64,000 nt of DNA from Gammaproteobacteria bacterium (GCA_965243395.1 CBDEUS010000002.1:640001-704000); one strand, 5' to 3'; positions 19,016 through 31,663 are shown, counted from the first letter of the stretch. Notes: generated by a model from the letters alone, not told the origin. Translations and numbers: made by a program.

Positions 19016-19498
19016 ATGAGCTCGTCTACACAAAAAGTAGAAAATATATATCAGCTAGTATATGTGAGCACTGCTACAGCTCCATTTGAAATAGAGGATA
19101 TAGCCGCAATAGAAAATGTTTCTGTTAGAAACAATAAAGTGCTGGGTTTGACTGGGTTATTAACTTATTGTGATTGTAAATTTATGCAATTCTTGGAGGG
19201 TGAAAAAACCTATGTTGAAAAGTTGTTTGCTAAGATTAAAAAAGATACGAGACATCATTCCATCGATATAATGCGTGAAGGTTATATCTCAGAACGCCAA
19301 TATACTGGCTGGTCTATGAGATATACAGACATTGATGATATTCAGCTGCATGAAGGATTTGTTCATAAAAAACTATTCGAAAATCTGACACCTTCGCTTG
19401 CTCCATATGATAAAGCTAAAGAGTCCCTTGCGTTACTTGTTTCTTTTAAAAGCTCTTGTCGTGATCAAATTTATAAAAAAGCGTTAAGTTCCAAATAG
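19016..19498 (+). CDS. BLUF blue-light sensor domain protein
   Basis: YQLVYVS, N..LGLTGLL, FMQFLEG, KI..D.RH, WSM; the Tyr/Gln/Trp/Met photocycle residues are present. Confidence 0.9.
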   Translation: MSSSTQKVENIYQLVYVSTATAPFEIEDIAAIENVSVRNNKVLGLTGLLTYCDCKFMQFLEGEKTYVEKLFAKIKKDTRHHSIDIMREGYISERQYTGWSMRYTDIDDIQLHEGFVHKKLFENLTPSLAPYDKAKESLALLVSFKSSCRDQIYKKALSSK

Positions 19499-20033: not shown

Positions 20034-20525
20034 TTATTTCGAGCTTGGAACTTCTTGAATAGAATTTAGAAATAATAGTAATTCAAATATTTTCCCTCTT
20101 ACTAATGTGTTCGCGTGTTCTGGGCTAACTTCGTACCAGGATTCTTCCGTATACCGATCACCCCAAATAGGCATTAGTCGAGGGCCATGAGATTTTACTA
20201 ACTCTCTCCCATCTATGATCATATAGGTCTCTAGAAAGGGAAAATCACCGTTATTTTCCTTTGCAAGTTTAGTCAGATCGGATGGTTTGAAAACCAATGC
20301 AAATGCATAGGGTCCATTACCTCGACCATTATCTCCATGACACAATGCACATCTTTGTTGAAATTCTCGAGCACCTGCTGAAACTGCATCTGTAGGCTCA
20401 GAGGCAAAAGAAAAAGTGAATAATCCAAAAAATATGTAAATAATTGTATAAATACAAAAACTTTTCACCTTGGCTACAAGAAAGGGGTGAATGAAAAAAT
20501 TATACTTATCTATCAAGCACATCAT
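20034..20525 (-). CDS. Monohaem c-type cytochrome; true start possibly GTG at 20468
   Basis: Signal-like segment, CALCHG, PSDLT, HG...MPIWG (Met axial ligand). Confidence 0.85.
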   Translation of the reverse strand: MMCLIDKYNFFIHPFLVAKVKSFCIYTIIYIFFGLFTFSFASEPTDAVSAGAREFQQRCALCHGDNGRGNGPYAFALVFKPSDLTKLAKENNGDFPFLETYMIIDGRELVKSHGPRLMPIWGDRYTEESWYEVSPEHANTLVRGKIFELLLFLNSIQEVPSSK

Positions 20526-20874
20526 CTCGATGAGTTTCTATTGCATCAATTACTTTTGTAGTGAGGCTTTTCCCAACATCAAGGTCTGATAAAGACTTTT
20601 TTACGCATTCCATCATTGCGTCAACGTGCTCATCACTTAGACCTTTTTCCACCGCACCTTTATGTGCGCGACGCATGTCCTTACCAATATAAAGTGAAGG
20701 GCCACCAAATATATAGGTTAAAAATGCGGACATTTTTCTTTTTTGTTTTTCAACGTCTATATTTTCAAAAAAGCTATTGATACGGTCATCATCAAGTATG
20801 TGTACATATAAGTAATGAGAGGCTTTTTCCACAGTTTCTTTGCCACCTAACTCTTCATATAGTGATTGATCCAT
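20506..20874 (-). CDS. Group I truncated haemoglobin (GlbN-like)
   Basis: SLYEELGG, D.RI..FF, FLT..FGGP..Y.GKDM..AH. Confidence 0.9.
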   Translation of the reverse strand: MDQSLYEELGGKETVEKASHYLYVHILDDDRINSFFENIDVEKQKRKMSAFLTYIFGGPSLYIGKDMRRAHKGAVEKGLSDEHVDAMMECVKKSLSDLDVGKSLTTKVIDAIETHRDDVLDR

Positions 20875-20968: not shown

Positions 20969-21643
20969 TTAGAAAGTGCGTCCAATTCCAATAAAATAGA
21001 CCCAAGGGTCTATTTCGATATCAACATCTCTATTTATTCCATTTGTTTTTAGTGTCGCGTCCGCATCAATGTCCGCATACCATACTGCAGCATTAAAAAA
21101 CCATTTGTCGTTTATAGAAATATCAGCACCTACTTGAGCTGCAAGCCCCAAAGAGTCATCTATATCAAGCCGAGTATCACCACCAAGTGCAGTTTCGAGC
21201 GATGAAGATACATCTTCATCGGGGAAGTGTGTGTAGTTGACACCTGCACCGACATAAGGACGGAACTTGCCTGTACCATTAAAATGATATTGAAGTGATA
21301 AGGTAGGTGGGAAAACATCTACATCTGCAATTTTTCCTAGGGCATTTAATCCATCTTTACCGCGTAAATCATGTGTTGCAGGGGTTACACCTAATAACTC
21401 AATTGCAATCTTTGAAGTTAGCATGTAACCAATTGTAAAACCTAATGTAACGTCATTATCAACACCAACCTCAGTGTTGGGAATTCCTTCTACATCGTTA
21501 CTACTATCGTTTGGTTCAATAAGGGCGGGACCTATTCTGGCAAACCAAGTGCCTTTTTCATATGCAAAGCTCGACTGAGTATAAATAACAATGAAAAATA
21601 TGATTATTATTTTAATAAAACTTTTGCGACTGAAGGTTAACAT
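20969..21643 (-). CDS. ompW: Outer membrane protein OmpW
   Basis: Signal peptide, PPTLSLQYHF, RPYVGAGVNYT, IDPWVY..G..F terminus. Confidence 0.92.
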   Translation of the reverse strand: MLTFSRKSFIKIIIIFFIVIYTQSSFAYEKGTWFARIGPALIEPNDSSNDVEGIPNTEVGVDNDVTLGFTIGYMLTSKIAIELLGVTPATHDLRGKDGLNALGKIADVDVFPPTLSLQYHFNGTGKFRPYVGAGVNYTHFPDEDVSSSLETALGGDTRLDIDDSLGLAAQVGADISINDKWFFNAAVWYADIDADATLKTNGINRDVDIEIDPWVYFIGIGRTF

Positions 21644-21737: not shown

Positions 21738-21751
21738 CTGACTTATGTCAG
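21738..21751 (-). promoter_or_regulatory. FNR-like palindrome CTGAC-TTAT-GTCAG upstream of ompW
   Basis: Perfect 5-4-5 palindrome; minus-strand TAGATT at 21715-21710, 22 nt downstream. Confidence 0.6.
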
Positions 21752-22294: not shown

Positions 22295-23032
22295 TTAATT
22301 CAAGTTATAGTCACCTTCAGCAATCCCGCATAATTTTTCGTGGTTAAGGATAGCTATTTTTTTGCGATCTGCATTAATAAGTTTATTTTCTTTGAATTTG
22401 GAAATTAGTCGGCTGACGGTCTCATCTGCAAGTCCTAAATAGTTGCCGATATCATAGCGACTCATAGTGAGATCAAATTCTTCAGCAGAATAGCCACGCG
22501 CTTTAAAACGACCCGATAGATTAATTAAAAAAGTTGCTAATTTTTGTTCAGCATTTCTTCTGGCTAGCAAAAGCAGCATCGTATGATCTTTTGTAATTTC
22601 ATCACTGATTAGACTTAATAATTGTTGTTGCAACCCTGGAATTTTCACGCATAAAACATTTAATTCATCAATGGGTAGTTCACAAATAGTAGCAGTATCT
22701 AAAGCCACTCCAGAGCAGCTATGTATATGATTATCAAGGCCATCCAAACCCAATATTTCACCTGGTAAGTGGAAGCCTAAAACCTGTTCTTCACCATTTT
22801 TAGCAGTAGTGAAAGTTTTTACTGAGCCAGATCGCACCGCATAAATACAGCCAGAACTCTCACCCTGGTTAAAAATTCGCTCATTTTTTTGTAGTAGTCT
22901 TCGTTGTTTAATGACGTCATCTAAAGAATTTAGATCGTTGTTGTTTAAACCTCTTGGCAGGCATAACTCCACTAAAGAGCAATTTTTGCAAGATGCCTTA
23001 AGTGATTTGAAATTGACTTTTTGCTCTTCCAT
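22295..23032 (-). CDS. fnr: FNR/Anr oxygen-sensing Crp-family regulator
   Basis: N-terminal CKNCSLVELC plus a central Cys (4Fe-4S ligands), GFHLPGE..GLD, HTH SRYDIGNYLGLADETVSR. Confidence 0.92.
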   Translation of the reverse strand: MEEQKVNFKSLKASCKNCSLVELCLPRGLNNNDLNSLDDVIKQRRLLQKNERIFNQGESSGCIYAVRSGSVKTFTTAKNGEEQVLGFHLPGEILGLDGLDNHIHSCSGVALDTATICELPIDELNVLCVKIPGLQQQLLSLISDEITKDHTMLLLLARRNAEQKLATFLINLSGRFKARGYSAEEFDLTMSRYDIGNYLGLADETVSRLISKFKENKLINADRKKIAILNHEKLCGIAEGDYNLN

Positions 23033-23146: not shown

Positions 23147-23160
23147 CTGATCTGGATCAG
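23147..23160. promoter_or_regulatory. Palindrome CTGAT-CTGG-ATCAG (FNR-type site) in the fnr/GST divergent region
   Basis: Perfect 5-4-5 palindrome exactly 60 bp from a second copy. Confidence 0.65.
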
Positions 23161-23206: not shown

Positions 23207-23220
23207 CTGATGTGGATCAG
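23207..23220 (+). promoter_or_regulatory. Palindrome CTGAT-GTGG-ATCAG (FNR-type site) for the GST-GST-AlkB-like operon
   Basis: Perfect 5-4-5 palindrome; TATTCT -10 hexamer at 23242-23247, 21 nt downstream. Confidence 0.7.
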
Positions 23221-23374
23221 AATCTAGAGACGTTATCTCAGTATTCTTGCTGAACAGTTAGCAAGGTACTTGTTGCATCAATATATTCCATAGTTTGTAT
23301 GTGGGGAAATAAGACGCCAATTAGCAAGTATCTGGGTAGGCCAAATCAGAAACAATTTTACGGAGACCAAAATT

Positions 23375-23962
23375 ATGGGTTTATTCAGTAAGTCAAAACC
23401 GAAAGAAAGTGAAAAAACAAAACTACTATGCATTCAGGGCGATGCTTCGTCATATAAGTGTCTTTTCCTGGCTTCCTTTAGAAAGTTACCGGTTGAAGTT
23501 GAATGGGGTGAGCCATCCACACTCGACGACAAAATGTCTGAATCTCTAAATATGTCAAATTTACATCGCTATCCGTGTATTGAAGATGGAGATTTCACAA
23601 TTTGTGGTGAAAGTGCAGTTCTTACTTATCTAAACATTAAAGGACGCACGCCTACCATCCATCCAAGAAAAGCAAGAGTACTTGCAATGCAACAATACTG
23701 GATACAAGTTTTAGCAACTAAATGTGAAGGTGAAAACATTCCTGCAGTATTAAATGAATTAGAAAAAACACTGGAAGGAAATAAATATATTGTTGGCGAA
23801 CTTTCACTAGCAGATTTTCATTGGGCGGCAACATTTAAGGCTCTGGAAGAAGTTGGTAACGCGCCAGACATTTCAAACTATAAAAATATTAGTAACTGGT
23901 ATGCACATATGAAGAGCGAAATTCCAAGCTTTGATGTAAGTAGTGAGAAAGTTGCGGCATAA
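23375..23962 (+). CDS. Glutathione S-transferase-fold protein (divergent)
   Basis: YP.IEDGDF.I.GESAVL.YL (GST-N) and LE..L....YIVGELSLADF (GST-C). Confidence 0.8.
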   Translation: MGLFSKSKPKESEKTKLLCIQGDASSYKCLFLASFRKLPVEVEWGEPSTLDDKMSESLNMSNLHRYPCIEDGDFTICGESAVLTYLNIKGRTPTIHPRKARVLAMQQYWIQVLATKCEGENIPAVLNELEKTLEGNKYIVGELSLADFHWAATFKALEEVGNAPDISNYKNISNWYAHMKSEIPSFDVSSEKVAA

Positions 23963-24004
23963 AGTTTTTATTTAAGATTTATTTTATTACATAGGAATTA
24001 AGTT

Positions 24005-24799
24005 ATGACTGATTTATTTGAACAAATGGCTGAAAAGTCCGGGGGCCAAAGTAATGCGGGTTACGGCGCATCTGGTGAAATGAAAAAAACACAATATGTA
24101 TTAGAACTGATAGGGTCTCCTGCAGATGCAGACACATTAAAGTGTGTAATTACTGCAGCTGAGCAAGGAATGGAAATGAATTGTTACAGCATGGTTACTG
24201 ACAAAACAGATGATTTTGATCAACAAATTTCAGAATTATCACCTTTGTCAATTACTCCATGTTTAAAGGAAGCAGATTTTTATACATGTGGAAGTAGTGC
24301 AATAACCGCTTTTGCCGACGCTAGAGGTCTAGGCTATGCACTTACTCCGCGCAATGCGTCACTCGCGGCAATGCAAGAGTATTGGGTGGATATTGCAGTA
24401 ACAAATGTTGCGCCTTTAGTTGAACAAATTGTTGATGAAGTATTTGTCAAAAAATATGGTGATGCATCATACACATCTGATCAAAACTCCATTGATTCTG
24501 CTGGAGAGGGATTAAAAATATTTTTTGATGCTTTAGATCAACAACTTCAAAACAATAAATATATTGTGTGTGATAAATACACCTGGGCAGATCTTCATTG
24601 GACTGCCTATGCACATCTTTTAGATGTGGCGGGTTGTAGTGCATTGATAAACGAACGTGCACATGTCAAACAATGGTTTGACCGTATCAAAACACGTAAA
24701 GCACAGTGCGGACAGGATGAAATTGCCTATGAAATATTACCAAGTGTTGAAGAAACTCAACAAGGCAAAATCAAGTCTGTCGTCATTAGTGATTTTTAA
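24005..24799 (+). CDS. Glutathione S-transferase-fold protein (divergent)
   Basis: SPL..TPCL.E.DF...GS.AI..F, LDQQL.N.KYIV.D.YTWADL, V.QWFDRI..R. Confidence 0.8.
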   Translation: MTDLFEQMAEKSGGQSNAGYGASGEMKKTQYVLELIGSPADADTLKCVITAAEQGMEMNCYSMVTDKTDDFDQQISELSPLSITPCLKEADFYTCGSSAITAFADARGLGYALTPRNASLAAMQEYWVDIAVTNVAPLVEQIVDEVFVKKYGDASYTSDQNSIDSAGEGLKIFFDALDQQLQNNKYIVCDKYTWADLHWTAYAHLLDVAGCSALINERAHVKQWFDRIKTRKAQCGQDEIAYEILPSVEETQQGKIKSVVISDF

Positions 24800-24847
24800 T
24801 AACAAAAATAATTATTAATATTTAAATCTAAGTAGTGGGAGTAAAAA

Positions 24848-26032
24848 ATGCATAAATTTTTAGTAAATTTTCGATATTTAGAAACGCCGATACTAATTTT
24901 CATGACACTAGTGGGATTAGTAATTGGGGGTCCTTGGGTATGGACCGGAGTCGTATTACTAATTGCTTCAGTCATTATCGACTGGGCAACCAGTGCAATG
25001 AAATCTGTGCAGTGCGGCCCTGCGGGTAGAGACGAGGATGGTGACTTATATGGAGTTGCTTCATTTTTAAAAGTCATGATGTGGATACAGTACCCAATAT
25101 TTGTCATGCTCCAGTTAGCACTTGTCTGGCGAGTTTATGAATACGCCAATGGTGTTTCTTTTGGGCCAGATGAAATTTTAGGGATTACTATTCACCATGG
25201 TCTTACAACATGGGGGATGGTAGGTGCAACCATTTCTGCAGGCATTTATTTAGGCCTTGGGATTATGTTTGGACATGAGCTCGCTCATACTAAGGGTCCA
25301 ACATTTGTCCTAGCTCGTTGGATGATGGCATTAAGTGGTATTGCACATTTCTGTTATGCGCATGTGTACAACCATCATTTAGAATTAGGTTGTGAAGATG
25401 ATCCTGCTACATCACCACGCGGCCGTAATATCTATAAACATTATCTACTCTCTCACTTTGGACAATCACGTTTTCTTTATGTGATGGAGCGCCAACGTCT
25501 TAAGAAGAAAGGCGTACCTTTTATCTCATGGCAAAATCGATGGATTCGTGGATATGCAATGAGTTTACCAACCATCTTTGTATTTTGGTTTGCGGCCGGA
25601 TGGATTGGCTTAGCTGTAATGGTAGGGTCTTGGGTAATTTCTGCATTTGAATTAGAAGTACTCAACTACCTAGAGCACTATGGATTGATTCGCGAAAAAG
25701 GTCAGCCTATTGATTATCACCATTCGTGGGACGTTGGCGATTCTCCATTCACGCAATGGGGTTTCATTGAGATCGGTCGCCAAGCAGATCACCATGACCG
25801 AGGTGAAACCCATTTCTGGGAACTAGAAGATTGCGGAGCTCCTGATACCGGGTATGGCTACTATGCAATGCTTGCGTTACTTCTTGTACCACCGGCATGG
25901 GAACGATTTATCAAACCGCGTCTTGCCGACTGGGATGAAAACAGAGCAAGCGAAGGTGAGCGTAAAATTGCTGCGCGGATGAATTATCTTGCGGGCTGGC
26001 ATGATATGCCGCTATGTGACAAACCTAAATAA
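24848..26032 (+). CDS. Membrane non-haem diiron enzyme, AlkB/XylM (alkane monooxygenase/desaturase) superfamily
   Basis: TM helices; HELAH, HVYNHH, DPATSPRG, NYLEHYGL, HHSW and RQADHH (third His box variant). Substrate unknown. Confidence 0.85.
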   Translation: MHKFLVNFRYLETPILIFMTLVGLVIGGPWVWTGVVLLIASVIIDWATSAMKSVQCGPAGRDEDGDLYGVASFLKVMMWIQYPIFVMLQLALVWRVYEYANGVSFGPDEILGITIHHGLTTWGMVGATISAGIYLGLGIMFGHELAHTKGPTFVLARWMMALSGIAHFCYAHVYNHHLELGCEDDPATSPRGRNIYKHYLLSHFGQSRFLYVMERQRLKKKGVPFISWQNRWIRGYAMSLPTIFVFWFAAGWIGLAVMVGSWVISAFELEVLNYLEHYGLIREKGQPIDYHHSWDVGDSPFTQWGFIEIGRQADHHDRGETHFWELEDCGAPDTGYGYYAMLALLLVPPAWERFIKPRLADWDENRASEGERKIAARMNYLAGWHDMPLCDKPK

Positions 26033-26067
26033 AAAATATTTAACGAATCAAATACGAGGTAATAATC

Positions 26068-26280
26068 ATGTCAAGAGTTCAACTAGCTATACTTGCAATC
26101 GCAGCTTTTACAGGTGTTTCGGGTTTCATTCTTTATTCACTTGGAATTGGAGACCATCATTTTAATCCGCTTTGGGCGCTTGGAACTTCAATTGTCTTTT
26201 TAATTATTTTATTAATTGATGTTTGGATGTTCTTTGCTATTTCAGGTGAAGATGCCTTCAAGTGGGATCCTGAAACATAA
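26068..26280 (+). CDS. Small two-TM hypothetical protein
   Basis: GAGG SD, two hydrophobic helices, last gene before a terminator. Confidence 0.7.
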   Translation: MSRVQLAILAIAAFTGVSGFILYSLGIGDHHFNPLWALGTSIVFLIILLIDVWMFFAISGEDAFKWDPET

Positions 26281-26300
26281 AAAAACGTTAACACTAAAAC

Positions 26301-26334
26301 AAAAAACCGCAGTTATATTGACTGCGGTTTTTTT
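26301..26334 (+). terminator. Rho-independent terminator
   Basis: AAAAAACCGCAGT..ACTGCGG-TTTTTTT hairpin with U tract. Confidence 0.85.
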
Positions 26335-29393: not shown

Positions 29394-30273
29394 TATGCCG
29401 ACAGACTTTTGGGCAGGATGGATTATCGTACTCACCATCGTTAGTTTGATGGGATTTGTTTGGTTGGTGTATAGCATTTACTTTTTAGCTAACAAACAAA
29501 AACAAGAAGAATCACCTATTTGGGATGAAACACTCTCAGAGGACGCACACCCAGCCCCTATGTGGTGGTTTTGGTTAACGTTAATTGCATTAGTTTTAAC
29601 GGTTGTATATTTAATTTTATATCCTGGTCTAGGATCTTTTAGTGGAACTTTAAAATGGTCCCAACATGGAAGACTTGATCACAGCATGAGCCACTATCAT
29701 AAAAATTTTTCCCCTAAACGAAATTACGTTCTCAACCGATCAATTTCTGAATTGCAGGCCAACCATGCAGTCATGCAATCTGCACAAAGAATTTTTGTAC
29801 AAAATTGTGCTGCATGTCATGGAGTTAATGGACAGGGACAAGCATCTATGTTTCCTAACTTAAAAGATAATGATTGGCAGTGGGGGGGTGGTGAAGAAGC
29901 CATCACTCAGACAATTAAACATGGTCGACGAGCAATAATGGTTGGTTGGAAAGATGCTATTGGAGATGAAGGTGTGTCACAGGTAATTAGTTATGTAAAG
30001 GCGTTATCAAGTAATGATCATAACAATGATCAAGGTAAAGAAATTTTTCAGAAAAATTGTGCTGCATGCCATGGTTTGCAAGGAGAGGGTAACCCTGTTC
30101 TGGGCGCACCAAATTTAACTGATGATATATGGTTATATGGTGATTCTGATAACGCGCTAATTCAAACCATCGCATATGGTCGTGAAGGAGTAATGCCTTC
30201 ATTTGAAAATCGATTAGACGATATTCAGATTCGCATGCTTACTGCACTTCTAATGCAAGTTGATAAACATTAA
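29386..30273 (+). CDS. ccoP: cbb3-type oxidase subunit III
   Basis: P.P.WW, YPGLG, two CAACHG haem motifs, PNL.D..W. Confidence 0.96.
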   Translation: MADMPTDFWAGWIIVLTIVSLMGFVWLVYSIYFLANKQKQEESPIWDETLSEDAHPAPMWWFWLTLIALVLTVVYLILYPGLGSFSGTLKWSQHGRLDHSMSHYHKNFSPKRNYVLNRSISELQANHAVMQSAQRIFVQNCAACHGVNGQGQASMFPNLKDNDWQWGGGEEAITQTIKHGRRAIMVGWKDAIGDEGVSQVISYVKALSSNDHNNDQGKEIFQKNCAACHGLQGEGNPVLGAPNLTDDIWLYGDSDNALIQTIAYGREGVMPSFENRLDDIQIRMLTALLMQVDKH

Positions 30274-31663
30274 TCCTGTAAATTATTTTATGAAAAAAAT
30301 GAACATGAAAACAAAAAGTGCTGCATTATTTTTACTATTGTTGCCGATAATAGCTGATGCAACGAACGGGTATTTTGCGCATGGTATTGGTATAAAAAAT
30401 CGAGCACTTGCAGGTGCCGGAGTCGCTTTTCCACAAGATGCCTTGGCAAGTGCTACAAACCCTGCGGGTATGGCTTTTATTGGAAATCGTTTTGATATCG
30501 GAGCGGTTTTGTTTCGACCAGATCGGGGTTATTCGGCACGAACAAGCCTTGCTAATGGAAATGGCGGAGCATTCACTATCGGACCTGATTCAGAAGATAG
30601 TGGAGACGCATCATTTTTAATCCCAAATTTTGGTATTAACTATATGTTGACAGAGAATGATGCAATTGGATTATCCATTTATGGTAATGGTGGTTTAAAT
30701 ACGTCTTATCAAGGCGGAAGTGCTTCATTTGATCCCACAGGAATGGGCGGAGCAGCTTCAACTTTTCCTGGTACATTTGGTGCGGGTACGGCTGGTGTGG
30801 ATCTGTTCCAAATATTTTTTAATTTTTCTTATGCGCATAAATTTTCTGAAAACTTTTCTATAGGCTTGAGTCCTATTTTTGTCGTACAGGGATTTCGCAG
30901 TAATGGTTTAGATACCTTTGCACCGTTTACAAAAACTTTTGCAGAAAATGGTGGAATGATAATGCCTGATAGCTTAACCGATAATGGCCAAGATTATTCT
31001 TATGGGGGTGGTGTGCAAGTTGGTTTATTAGCTAAAGATGTAATTGGCACAACTGACTTCGGTTTTTCTTATCGTTCAAAAATGTATATGGATGAGTTTG
31101 ACGATTATTCTGATTTATTTGCTGAAGACGGCGATTTTGATGTTCCGCCAACACTCTGGACGGGAATTGCAATTGAGTTAACGAAAAAATTAACTTTTGT
31201 CGCTGATTATCAAAAAATATGGTACGAAGACGTGGATGCGATTAGTAACGACGTTCAAAATTTATTTTCCTGTCCGACGGCTGGTTTGGGCGGCACTGAT
31301 GTTGATAGTTGCTTAGGCGGGAATACCGGGGGTGGTTTTGGTTGGGATGATATCGATATCATCAAACTAGGTCTTCAATGGCAAACTCACCCTGATGTCA
31401 CTATGCGCTTTGGTTATAGTCATTCAGATAACCCAATTGATGATGATCAAGTGCTTTTCAATATACTGGCCCCGGGTGTAGTCGAAGATCACATTACGAT
31501 TGGCGCTACAATAGAGACGAAGAATATGGGTGAAATCAACATCGAGGCGATGCATGCTTTACATAACTCCGTTAAAGGTGCGAATGCTTTTGATCCCACA
31601 CAGGAAATTCGCATAGGTATGCACCAGTTTGAATTAGGCCTCAGCTGGTCAAAGGAATTTTGA
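30260..31663 (+). CDS. FadL/TodX (OmpP1) family outer-membrane channel for hydrophobic compounds; start probably ATG 30305
   Basis: Signal peptide followed by TNGYFAHG, NPAGM hatch motif, GNGGLNT.Y, FNILAPGV, C-terminal Phe. Confidence 0.88.
   Translation: MININPVNYFMKKMNMKTKSAALFLLLLPIIADATNGYFAHGIGIKNRALAGAGVAFPQDALASATNPAGMAFIGNRFDIGAVLFRPDRGYSARTSLANGNGGAFTIGPDSEDSGDASFLIPNFGINYMLTENDAIGLSIYGNGGLNTSYQGGSASFDPTGMGGAASTFPGTFGAGTAGVDLFQIFFNFSYAHKFSENFSIGLSPIFVVQGFRSNGLDTFAPFTKTFAENGGMIMPDSLTDNGQDYSYGGGVQVGLLAKDVIGTTDFGFSYRSKMYMDEFDDYSDLFAEDGDFDVPPTLWTGIAIELTKKLTFVADYQKIWYEDVDAISNDVQNLFSCPTAGLGGTDVDSCLGGNTGGGFGWDDIDIIKLGLQWQTHPDVTMRFGYSHSDNPIDDDQVLFNILAPGVVEDHITIGATIETKNMGEINIEAMHALHNSVKGANAFDPTQEIRIGMHQFELGLSWSKEF

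Follow-up and report, generated by a model that had tools for sequence, protein, structure and literature searches.

A four-gene operon beside an FNR paralogue and the possible oxidation of dimethylsulfide by a family of membrane di-iron monooxygenases

A gammaproteobacterial genome (GCA_965243395.1) carries a four-gene operon coding for two GST-like proteins, a XylM/AlkB-type membrane di-iron hydroxylase and a small membrane protein, which we propose, with a probability of about 0.45, to form a membrane monooxygenase isoform used at low oxygen, with dimethylsulfide (DMS) or a similar small methyl-sulfur compound as substrate. The proposal is drawn from the sequence of the window, that is, the whole stretch of 64,000 nucleotides that was analysed (CBDEUS010000002.1:640001-704000), and from related loci and genomes. 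The operon is an isoform of a larger conserved module. The original prediction did not recognise the arrangement as a described pathway, and literature searches indeed returned no published description.

Layout and conservation of the operon

All four genes (Table 1) lie on the plus strand with gaps of 42, 48 and 35 nt, in agreement with the co-oriented genes and 35-48 nt spacing that had been predicted. The operon is flanked by fnr and two CTGAT-N4-ATCAG palindromes on one side and by a hairpin terminator on the other, which confirms the proposed bounds, a CTGAT-box promoter and a strong terminator. Downstream follow a Yip1-domain gene and then ccoN, and hence the operon is located between fnr and the cbb3 genes, as claimed.

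Table 1. Features of the operon and its surroundings, in nucleotide positions of the window
Feature	Position	Strand	Basis
GST-like protein 1, 195 aa	23375-23962	+	Pfam GST_C 30.6 bits
GST-like protein 2, 264 aa	24005-24799	+	Pfam GST_C 33.2 bits
XylM/AlkB-like membrane di-iron monooxygenase, hydroxylase component, 394 aa	24848-26032	+	PF00487 FA_desaturase 91.7 bits
70-aa two-helix membrane protein, predicted hydroxylase subunit	26068-26280	+	ORF; without Pfam or NCBIfam family
Hairpin terminator	26301-26333		13 pairs; A run before, T run after; bidirectional
Distal FNR-type box CTGATCTGGATCAG	23147-23160		palindrome CTGAT-N4-ATCAG
Proximal FNR-type box CTGATGTGGATCAG	23207-23220		palindrome CTGAT-N4-ATCAG
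FNR paralogue	22295-23032	-	NCBIfam Fnr 270.7 bits, cut-off 228
Palindrome CTGACTTATGTCAG between ompW and sirB	21738-21751		95 nt upstream of ompW start
OmpW-family outer-membrane channel	20969-21643	-	Pfam OmpW 182.8 bits
Truncated (bacterial-like) globin	20506-20874	-	Pfam Bac_globin 67.8 bits
c-type cytochrome, last gene of ompW-globin-cytochrome unit	20034-20525	-	weak Pfam Cytochrome_CBB3/Cytochrom_C matches

The genes for the FNR paralogue, both GST-like proteins, the oxygenase and the small membrane protein are kept together in all 11 orthologous loci compared, and the same set was found in 13 colinear and seven rearranged loci, the link between fnr and the operon thus persisting through a rearrangement. 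As the linkage is retained in 11/11 and in 13 + 7 loci, the arrangement is more than a product of chance, and the neighbourhood check suggested in the original prediction has come out in favour of a conserved association with fnr and the GST-like genes.

It had also been noted that a rubredoxin, a XylA-type reductase and alcohol or aldehyde dehydrogenases are absent. Open reading frames and Pfam matches support this for the operon itself, but not for the system as a whole, since a XylA-type reductase and a ferredoxin are encoded in a paralogous cluster elsewhere in the genome and, in other lineages, in the oxygenase gene's own cluster. The reductase is 40% identical to XylA over 349 residues and has a 2Fe-2S + FAD + NAD architecture; the ferredoxin is a 59-aa 4Fe-4S protein (Fer4_19 in Pfam), and the paralogous cluster also codes for a third GST-like protein (GST3) and for a second small membrane protein. 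In 8/17 type A' loci the gene for the XylA-type reductase lies within the same cluster as the oxygenase gene. Three differently regulated isoforms of the oxygenase are present in the genome.

The ompW-globin-cytochrome c unit on the other side of fnr also recurs. OmpW, a member of the family that includes the alkane channel AlkL, scores 201 bits with the NCBIfam OmpW model, below its cut-off of 287. Its gene is syntenic in the genus, and in the seven rearranged loci it immediately precedes the oxygenase gene. Globin homologues are found near the operon in nine loci (types A and rearranged A), and a second type of globin is encoded inside 17 clusters of the oxygenase family elsewhere and, in L140, between the oxygenase and reductase genes. 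The cytochrome gene lies beside the operon in four genus loci, with pieces in a fifth, and we infer that the cytochrome belongs to the system from the CTGA box shared by the unit. A 500-aa protein of locus L135 was considered as a FadL-type porin and rejected, as it lacks a Pfam match and shows only a short, weak match to the Toluene_X protein of the window.

A separate clade of hydroxylases and its partner proteins

The 394-aa protein aligns with XylM over its full length (residues 7-384, 28% identity, E 2e-34), and its best solved relatives are the AlkB chains 8sbb and 8f6t (E about 1e-26), with an aligned core spanning residues 113-385. The motifs HELAH, HVYNHH, NYLEHYGL and QADHH are invariant in 30 sequences of the family. 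AlkB uses a full set of histidine boxes with nine ligands, of which the last has the form HxxHH. The family does not possess this full set, as a glutamine replaces the first histidine of the last box (RQADHH versus RHSDHH in AlkB), and this residue, Q312, is invariant in the same 30 sequences. There is a clear gap around the clade: one full-length representative at the 50% identity level scores 496 bits and the next 194 bits, and among 401 gammaproteobacterial genomes the family members have E-values below 1e-119, whereas all other AlkB/XylM proteins lie above 1e-52. In a quick maximum-likelihood tree the family is monophyletic (SH-aLRT 100, stem 1.01), two plasmid AlkB sequences fall into another clade and the XylM proteins (pWW0, pNL1, Alteromonas) form a separate one (SH-aLRT 100). 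These comparisons give good support for the identity of the 394-aa protein as a di-iron hydroxylase of the XylM/AlkB type that belongs to a separate clade. Placement among the characterised AlkB enzymes with ordinary alkane activity, together with unlinked GST genes, had been named as the result that would speak against a new system; instead, the enzyme falls into neither the AlkB nor the XylM clade of characterised proteins, and the linkage is conserved.

The system resembles xylene monooxygenase XylM/XylA of TOL plasmid pWW0 in its membrane di-iron hydroxylase, in the putative partner reductase encoded in the paralogous cluster and in the presence of a nearby outer-membrane channel gene. It differs in the separate clade and the altered histidine box, in additional components (small membrane subunit, GST-like proteins, globin and 4Fe-4S ferredoxin), and in an operon without reductase or alcohol and aldehyde dehydrogenases, whereas pWW0 and the Alteromonas plasmid carry dehydrogenase genes. 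The xylene monooxygenase operon is controlled by XylR/XylS rather than by an FNR-type regulator. With AlkB and its rubredoxin AlkG (8f6t, 8sbb), the protein shares the fold family and the HELxH, HxxxHH and NYxEHYGL motifs; however, only the core aligns, AlkB branches elsewhere, and the single rubredoxin gene of the genome (PF00301, C2:1132062) is about 468 kb away from the operon.

Homology to AlkB and XylM, the XylA-type reductase, and nearby channels of the OmpW and FadL/TodX types, which alk and xyl clusters have as well, would all suit an oxygenase that hydroxylates or epoxidises short alkanes, alkenes or methyl-aromatics, with the GST-like proteins opening or detoxifying reactive products as in isoprene and styrene degradation. 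More distant relatives are indeed found in classical alkane-type clusters with dehydrogenases. We nevertheless consider such a function unlikely: the conserved neighbours in 100 loci, examined with a query panel without dehydrogenases, included no alcohol or aldehyde dehydrogenase and no acyl-CoA ligase, the clade stands apart from every characterised enzyme, and its carriers are small-genome sulfur oxidisers. A hydrocarbon substrate would also leave the link to methanethiol oxidase described below unexplained, and the residues of the glutathione site that conjugation would require are not conserved.

The last point is based on the GST-like proteins themselves. They belong to a subfamily that, as sequence searches support well, is found only with this system; it has only three members in this genome, of which GST2 scores best (304 bits). 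In line with a two-domain GST fold, a profile built from 45 family sequences aligns across both domains with chains of Phi and Delta class GSTs (E 5e-31 to 1e-20). The position aligned to the catalytic serine of Phi class enzymes, at the start of helix 1, is Asp, Cys, His or Ser, depending on the member; what is conserved is a Lys-Cys pair located one turn further on. Of the Glu-Ser pair that holds the gamma-glutamyl end of glutathione, the glutamate is replaced by a nearly invariant glycine (G96 in GST2), and the residue after it is Ser, Thr or Glu. The predicted absence of a canonical N-terminal catalytic motif thus agrees with the lack of conservation at the catalytic Ser/Cys position and at the Glu-Ser contacts, and the two shared segments noted in both proteins, P.xA...AMQ.YW and AD(F/L)HW.A, are present as PRKARVLAMQQYW and PRNASLAAMQEYW and as ADFHWAA and ADLHWTA, respectively. 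We rejected the view of the AD(F/L)HW segment as an unusual feature, as this stretch aligns with ordinary Phi and Delta class GSTs. Since the glutathione-site residues are not conserved, the glutathione-dependent handling of the product that had been suggested is doubtful, and classical glutathione conjugation appears unlikely. Lacking conserved catalytic Ser/Cys and Glu-Ser contacts, these proteins are the weakest part of the scheme, in which they probably serve to bind a ligand or product or to hand it on. An oxygenase cluster with GST-family genes of its own is likewise found in the degradation of isoprene (IsoA-F with IsoI) and of styrene. There, the oxygenases are soluble enzymes of di-iron or flavin type and the GSTs form glutathione conjugates of epoxides, whereas the enzyme described here is membrane-bound and its GST-like partners lack conserved glutathione-site residues.

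The 70-aa protein, which has no match in Pfam or NCBIfam, is encoded directly after the oxygenase in 40/41 type A/A' loci, and its family has two members in the genome. The structure check proposed for the pair gave a complex score of 0.91 (three runs), compared with 0.00 for the best of three controls; this mark is reached by 58/80 solved complexes and by 2/110 mismatched pairs. The runs agree in at least 95% of contacts and the partner has a pLDDT of 90. On the basis of this model, the 70-aa protein is probably a membrane subunit of the hydroxylase.

The FNR paralogue and its CTGA boxes

The regulator encoded next to the operon is like E. coli FNR in its N-terminal cysteine cluster (Cys-x2-Cys-x5-Cys, SCKNCSLVELC), in the E--SR pattern of its recognition helix (ADETVSR) and in an NCBIfam score above the cut-off. 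It differs from E. coli FNR in an aspartate at the position of Val208, which is present in the window and in 11 genus loci. The operator of E. coli FNR is TTGAT-N4-ATCAA. In its place, the operon has CTGAT-N4-ATCAG twice, with the TGAT-N4-ATCA core retained and the outermost base pair of the half-sites changed from T/A to C/G. A TATTCT hexamer at 23242-23247 would set the centre of the proximal box near -40.5.

The compared loci give good support for a stable association of the operon with the neighbouring FNR paralogue and with CTGA-N6-TCAG boxes: at least one such box lies upstream of the GST1 gene in 11/11 genus loci, and the linkage of fnr is kept across the 13 + 7 loci. The boxes are not numerically enriched in the genome, in which seven CTGAY-N4-RTCAG sites were found versus 7.9 expected; it is their placement that is non-random, as all four intergenic sites, CTGACTTATGTCAG before ompW among them, lie in promoters of this system. 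The genome also contains 38 canonical boxes and a further FNR paralogue (METVSR). In lineages whose adjacent FNR carries Val or Lys at the Asp position, canonical TTGAT boxes are found at the same place; where no fnr is adjacent (L057-L071 and L073-L076), such boxes were not found. One locus (L049), with Asp and ATGAC...GATCAA, does not fit the pattern cleanly, and the covariation of Asp and CTGA is a single evolutionary event. A box precedes the shared reductase unit in 2/3 genus loci and in 0/10 others. No RNA run was listed among the sequencing runs that contain this stretch.

The link to methanethiol oxidase and the possible substrate

Among the 401 gammaproteobacterial genomes, methanethiol oxidase (MtoX) is encoded in 14/16 genomes with the oxygenase family and in 17/385 without it; for SBP56 the numbers are 15/16 and 30/384. 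The 16 genomes span 11 bacterial families, and related genomes among them are not independent. Two family genomes lack MtoX (G123, 80% complete, and G370, 97% complete). The family cluster adjoins mtoX-sco1-mauG in 4/16 loci, which come from three bacterial families, and lies within 20 kb of mtoX in two more genomes. In the genome studied here MtoX scores 762 bits (cut-off 650) and is accompanied by Sco1, MauG and TlpA. The loci adjoining mtoX belong to deeper branches of the family in the quick tree, not to the type A clade of the window, and the isoforms could therefore differ in substrate. The co-occurrence could also reflect the hosts only, as both MtoX and the oxygenase suit sulfur-oxidising or methylotrophic marine bacteria. 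Of the substrates named in the original prediction, organosulfur compounds are best supported, through the MtoX link, whereas sulfane sulfur and an epoxide route found no support.

A known route from DMS to methanethiol and formaldehyde, cited in PMC6548844, is catalysed by DmoAB of Hyphomicrobium sulfonivorans, a soluble flavin-dependent enzyme of the luciferase family. The same reaction is proposed here for an unrelated protein, and no luciferase-type (DmoA-like, PF00296) gene was found in the genome. Three genes for GFA-domain proteins are present in the genome. No class III alcohol dehydrogenase for glutathione-bound formaldehyde scored above the cut-off. The oxygenase family occurs mostly in sulfur oxidisers, some with genomes of 1.1 Mb, and the relatives named among the matches listed in a homologue search with the G036 protein belong to Hyphomicrobium, Thiobacillus, Acidiferrobacterales and Chromatiaceae; none of the 120 matches listed is from Methylophaga. 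For Methylophaga thiooxydans, high induction on DMS is reported of a "fatty acid desaturase" (MDMS009_226), together with a porin and an NAD(P)H flavin reductase, while dmoA is absent and no methyltransferase has been identified in Methylophaga (PMC6548844); the induced desaturase may be linked to the family described here.

The authors of that study interpret the induced gene as serving lipid homeostasis (PMC6548844), and a desaturase or hydroxylase modifying membrane lipids or quinones, which needs O2 and is thus over-produced when oxygen is scarce, with the GST-like proteins as lipid-binding or redox helpers, would agree with the FA_desaturase family assignment in Pfam and with the third oxygenase copy, which adjoins fabA and a gene for a MerR/B12-domain regulator. 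FNR control would also suit an oxygen-limited lipid enzyme. Such a function nonetheless seems improbable to us in view of the NYxEHYGL motif, which is specific to AlkB/XylM, the full-length alignment with XylM and a dedicated XylA-type reductase in place of the usual desaturase donors, as well as the outer-membrane channel and globin in the regulon and the adjacency to mtoX.

The evidence for DMS applies equally to other small volatile or hydrophobic compounds, such as dimethyl disulfide or trisulfide, methanethiol-derived species, dimethylselenide or methyl halides, as it does not distinguish DMS from related compounds; MtoX would then be only a downstream or ecological companion, and the three differently regulated isoforms could reflect different substrates. 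We give this little probability, as nothing favours any particular alternative. DMS is, moreover, an abundant natural precursor of methanethiol, for which the enzyme is still lacking in several degraders according to PMC6548844. A role in the oxidation of sulfane or elemental sulfur with glutathione persulfide as carrier appears most improbable. The carriers are mostly sulfur oxidisers and glutathione synthetase is encoded in the genome, but no gene for a persulfide dioxygenase, rhodanese or TusA-type protein was found among the conserved neighbours examined, relatives occur in the methylotroph Hyphomicrobium, and we know of no sulfane or elemental sulfur chemistry in the AlkB/XylM family.

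For the preferred substrate, DMS or a similar methyl-sulfur compound, the following scheme can be drawn. At low oxygen, the FNR paralogue with an intact iron-sulfur cluster would activate the operon, the ompW-globin-cytochrome c unit and the unit coding for GST3, the reductase and the second small protein. OmpW would admit the small hydrophobic substrate and the globin would help with scarce oxygen, while electrons would pass from NADH to the XylA-type reductase, perhaps also via the 59-aa 4Fe-4S ferredoxin, and on to the hydroxylase. Hydroxylation of a methyl group of DMS would yield methanethiol and formaldehyde, and the methanethiol could be passed to periplasmic MtoX.

Among the biogenic sulfur gases of the ocean, DMS is the main one. 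One 90%-identity cluster of the oxygenase family comprises 2784 sequences, and 201 viral contigs carry a member. We tentatively suggest that the clade as a whole might represent a membrane-bound DMS monooxygenase of marine bacteria, consisting of a XylM-like hydroxylase with its own two-helix subunit, plus the XylA-type reductase and 4Fe-4S ferredoxin, a globin and GST-like partners of a non-canonical kind, which would be present in free-living and symbiotic sulfur oxidisers and, stand-alone, on about 200 viral contigs. The isoforms of the genus would be tuned to oxygen, one of them under an FNR paralogue whose DNA specificity shifted to CTGAT from TTGAT by replacement of Val with Asp in the recognition helix. 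An enzyme family that travels with MtoX provides a concrete gene set for expression and knock-out studies. Irrespective of the substrate, the predicted small membrane subunit, a dedicated GST-like subfamily without the usual glutathione contacts and an FNR paralogue with concerted changes in its recognition helix and its operators would, if true, all be new for AlkB/XylM-type enzymes, and the last of these would be a natural example of a global regulator re-aimed at a private regulon.

The oxygenase family and its predicted small membrane partner

The window's oxygenase aligned to XylM of pWW0 over its whole length with 28% identity and its core matched the solved AlkB chains 8sbb and 8f6t with an E-value of about 1e-26; its enzyme class is secure. 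In a search of 1.84 billion representatives, a single full-length match was present in its 50% cluster (58% identity, 496 bits), whereas the next full-length match had only 33% identity and 194 bits. A similar gap was seen among 401 evenly drawn gammaproteobacterial genomes, 16 of which contain a family member (identity at least 48%, E below 1e-119), while all other AlkB/XylM matches stayed at or below 39% identity with E-values above 1e-52. A quick maximum-likelihood tree was drawn from 62 rows: 15 of the family's own members, the pWW0 XylM, four plasmid proteins (two XylM-like, two AlkB), four close relatives and every third one among the representatives with 340-440 aa. The family came out as monophyletic, with an SH-aLRT of 100 and a stem of 1.01, and lay apart from the XylM and AlkB clades. 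Since searches and tree both yield a separate clade, the enzyme falls outside the characterised AlkB clades, in agreement with the original prediction. The motifs HELAH, HVYNHH and NYLEHYGL are invariant in 30 family sequences, in which a Gln occupies the position of the first His of the last box in AlkB and XylM.

In the 70-aa protein encoded at the end of the operon, two hydrophobic helices are accompanied by a conserved loop of the form G-x-HH-x-x-P-x-W-A-x-G, and a Trp close to the C terminus is invariant. A complex model of this protein and the enzyme had been proposed as a check, and folding the two together with alignments of 30 and 34 rows gave a complex score of 0.91 in all three runs, compared to 0.00 for the best of three controls, which favours binding. 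Solved complexes came up to the mark used for this score in 58 of 80 cases and mismatched pairs in 2 of 110, counts that are rough for our own alignments. Contacts agreed to at least 95% between the runs, the pLDDT of the partner was 90, and in the modelled interface, oxygenase residues 183-255 and 377-381 are in contact with the small protein through its helix 2 and tail. No structure of AlkB or XylM is known to us to include a small subunit of this kind, so that memorisation by the model is an unlikely source of the score, and the modelling supports the predicted binding of the 70-aa protein to the oxygenase.

The window operon as one form of a larger module

Open reading frames, Pfam matches and sequence elements bear out the proposed four-gene operon with its palindromes, terminator-like hairpin and fnr and cbb3 neighbours. 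The four ORFs are separated by 42, 48 and 35 nt, NCBIfam holds no name for any of their products, and they are followed by a 13-pair hairpin between A and T runs, a Yip1-domain gene and ccoNO. Further features in and beyond the window are listed in the table; the gene after the FadL/TodX channel gene encodes a DUF302 protein.

Coordinates of features in the window and, where a contig is named, elsewhere in its own genome (G000)
Feature	Position	Strand	Remarks
BLUF blue-light sensor protein	19016-19498		96.9 bits; few kb from oxygen-regulated genes
Canonical FNR box	19745		between convergent genes
CTGAY-N4-RTCAG site	21738		intergenic, 95 nt before ompW
fnr	22295-23032	divergent from operon	score above curated Fnr cut-off
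Perfect palindrome CTGATCTGGATCAG	23147		upstream of operon
Perfect palindrome CTGATGTGGATCAG	23207		upstream of operon
TATTCT hexamer	23242-23247
Promoter favoured by scan	23258-23287
GST-like protein 1 (GST1)	23375-23962	+	Pfam: GST_C only
GST-like protein 2 (GST2)	24005-24799	+	Pfam: GST_C only
Oxygenase, 394 aa	24848-26032	+	Pfam: FA_desaturase only
70-aa protein	26068-26280	+	Pfam: none
FadL/TodX outer-membrane channel	30260-31663		Toluene_X, 58.7 bits; directly 3' of cbb3 oxidase genes
Canonical TTGATGATGATCAA	31437		within FadL/TodX channel gene
Second FNR paralogue	G000:C1:345611		between cytochrome c genes that are relatives of the one in the window
Third oxygenase copy	G000:C2:722707-723849		L026 5708-6856; outside window

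The window's own genome contains three oxygenase copies. The copy on contig C1 has msrB as a neighbour and is followed by genes for a 59-aa Fer4_19 ferredoxin, a 217-aa GST-like protein (GST3) in which a GST_N domain is recognisable, a reductase of the 2Fe-2S/FAD/NAD type that shares 40% identity with XylA, and a membrane protein of 75 aa; the ferredoxin and reductase genes lie within G000:C1:560675-562809. The absence of a XylA-type reductase noted at first holds for the window operon, but not for the genome. The third copy, the protein of which is the same as that of the C1 copy, stands alone beside a divergent MerR/B12-domain regulator (its B12-binding domain, with 30.6 bits, falls short of the 32.1 cut-off), fabA and a gene for a CDGSH iron-sulfur protein. 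The genome encodes exactly three members of the GST-like subfamily (304, 270 and 240 bits, against 67 for the GST that ranks next) and exactly two of the small membrane protein family.

Sorting 80 loci from public genomes with a tblastn panel revealed several recurrent arrangements. Type A is either colinear (fnr, GST1, GST2, oxygenase, small gene; 13 loci and 3 cut by contig ends) or rearranged (oxygenase, small gene, fnr, GST1, GST2; 7 loci), and type A' lacks fnr and combines the oxygenase and small gene with two to four GST-like genes (17 loci and 1 cut). Twelve loci are arranged as the C1 cluster (type B) and 27 as the third copy (type C). Type A' loci come from Candidatus Thiodiazotropha, Chromatiaceae, Arenicellales and 'Piscirickettsiaceae' MAGs, and 8 of the 17 have a third GST-like gene and a reductase alongside; a truncated globin and a small ferredoxin recur inside many family clusters. 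The modular architecture, of which the window operon is one form, is secure. In the draft genomes G001-G024, the oxygenase has many short matches at contig ends that cover one or the other end of the protein (residues 1-45 or 341-384), and near-identical paralogous copies apparently break the assemblies of this genus. Type B clusters of several genera also share a conserved leader, approximately 30 nt long and with the rough sequence CCTAATGA-N-TTGTCA-TTAGGGGGAGATATG, which extends into the start codon of the gene for the third GST-like protein (L025 6980-7011; same place in L086, L091, L095, L099, L101 and L107) and is possibly a translational control element.

Family members were also found on 201 viral contigs (IMG/VR), with 53-59% identity to the window protein, and the protein-atlas cluster 'xylene monooxygenase hydroxylase component' is labelled 83% viral. 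All 80 viral loci that were kept (L151-L230) contain the oxygenase gene alone, without reductase, GST-like or small genes; in L186, most neighbours match nothing and one matches a phage tail assembly chaperone, phrog_1158. The oxygenase may serve phages as an auxiliary gene here, or the contigs may be host DNA with a wrong viral label.

A profile of 45 GST-like family members matched Phi and Delta class GSTs over both domains (best E 5e-31), with lower scores for LigF and SspA. As predicted, a canonical catalytic motif is lacking: the position of the Phi-class catalytic Ser is variable (Asp, Cys, His or Ser), and the Glu of the Glu-Ser glutathione contact is replaced by a nearly invariant Gly. 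Helix 1 has a conserved Lys-Cys pair instead, and the cis-Pro, P115, W127 and an A-D-x-x-W segment are likewise conserved. Judged from the profile match and these residues, the proteins have a true GST fold, whereas a classical conjugating function is doubtful. The window's own genome can probably make glutathione.

Probable FNR-type control

The genome contains seven CTGAY-N4-RTCAG sites, compared to 7.9 expected from composition; three lie within long ORFs and four are intergenic, namely two before GST1, one before ompW and one in the C1 cluster, 152 nt before the GST3-reductase-small protein unit. For the canonical TTGAT-N4-ATCAA, 38 sites were counted against 7.6 expected. At least one CTGA-N6-TCAG box precedes GST1 in all 11 genus loci that include the upstream region, and more distant lineages (L052, L053, L055, L056 and L072) have canonical or near-canonical boxes before GST1 or the oxygenase gene; no box was found in the loci without adjacent fnr (L057-L071, L073-L076). 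Of the loci with the reductase unit, the window's own genome and L101 have the CTGA box before it, and L095 and 10 loci outside the genus lack it.

In the window and 11 genus loci, the recognition helix of the adjacent FNR has the sequence ADET(V/I)SR; the seven rearranged loci have AVETVSR, L056 has SKETISR, and L049 combines the Asp with a mixed box. The position preceding the Glu corresponds to Val208 of E. coli FNR, a residue implicated in outer half-site base discrimination. Together with the covariation of Asp and box, which counts as one evolutionary event, this role of Val208 would fit an FNR paralogue that has been re-aimed and has a private regulon. The 38 canonical boxes may be served by the second FNR paralogue (METVSR) as a general oxygen regulator. 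The TATTCT hexamer would set the proximal box near -40.5, the usual site for direct activation by FNR, and the promoter favoured by the scan would set it near -80. FNR-type control of the operon is a well supported prediction. At 6219-7968 of L140 (genome G036), just upstream of the oxygenase-globin-reductase-MtoX cluster, a PAS histidine kinase is encoded together with a LuxR-type response regulator, so that the regulators of the family differ between lineages.

Candidate substrate and place of the system

The window's own genome encodes the methanethiol oxidase MtoX, which scores 762 bits against a cut-off of 650, and genes for Sco1, MauG and two TlpA-like proteins come next; a DmoA-type luciferase-family gene was not found in it. 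Among 16 loci from other bacterial families, mtoX-sco1-mauG adjoins the family locus in four (L135, L137, L138 and L140, from three families), with the orders oxygenase, ferredoxin, GST-like protein, reductase, small protein, unassigned 500-aa protein and MtoX in L135 and oxygenase, globin, reductase and MtoX in L140; in two further genomes, mtoX and family genes are at most 20 kb apart. Across the 401 genomes, MtoX is present in 14 of the 16 with a family member and 17 of the 385 without, and Pfam SBP56 in 15 of 16 and 30 of 384, respectively (one genome was left unscored); the 16 represent 11 bacterial families, so that the effective number is smaller, and G165 among the 17 and G165 and G319 among the 30 are flagged as unpublished. 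Relatives of the G036-type protein occur in Hyphomicrobium methylovorum, Hyphomicrobium sp. 1Nfss2.1 and several Thiobacillus MAGs, and both genera are known for the degradation of dimethylsulfide (DMS). For M. thiooxydans on DMS, strong up-regulation is reported for MDMS009_226, annotated as a 'fatty acid desaturase', together with a porin and an NAD(P)H flavin reductase, and neither dmoA nor a methyltransferase candidate was found (PMC6548844); MDMS009_226 may be a member of the family. Lucinid sulfur-oxidising symbionts encode methanethiol oxidase, according to a preprint (10.64898/2025.12.05.692423).

The MtoX association and the outer-membrane channel for small hydrophobic molecules would fit an oxygenase acting on DMS, a reading to which we assign a probability of roughly 0.45. 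The window's type A clade itself is not adjacent to mtoX, and the GST-like proteins and the lack of a glutathione-dependent formaldehyde dehydrogenase in the window's own genome do not fit neatly with DMS; a hydrocarbon, a lipid or another volatile could take its place, each of them an unlikely substrate. Full-text searches of open papers returned no description of this system, consistent with the initial view that the arrangement is not a described pathway. The system is a XylM/XylA-type monooxygenase with new partners and new regulation.
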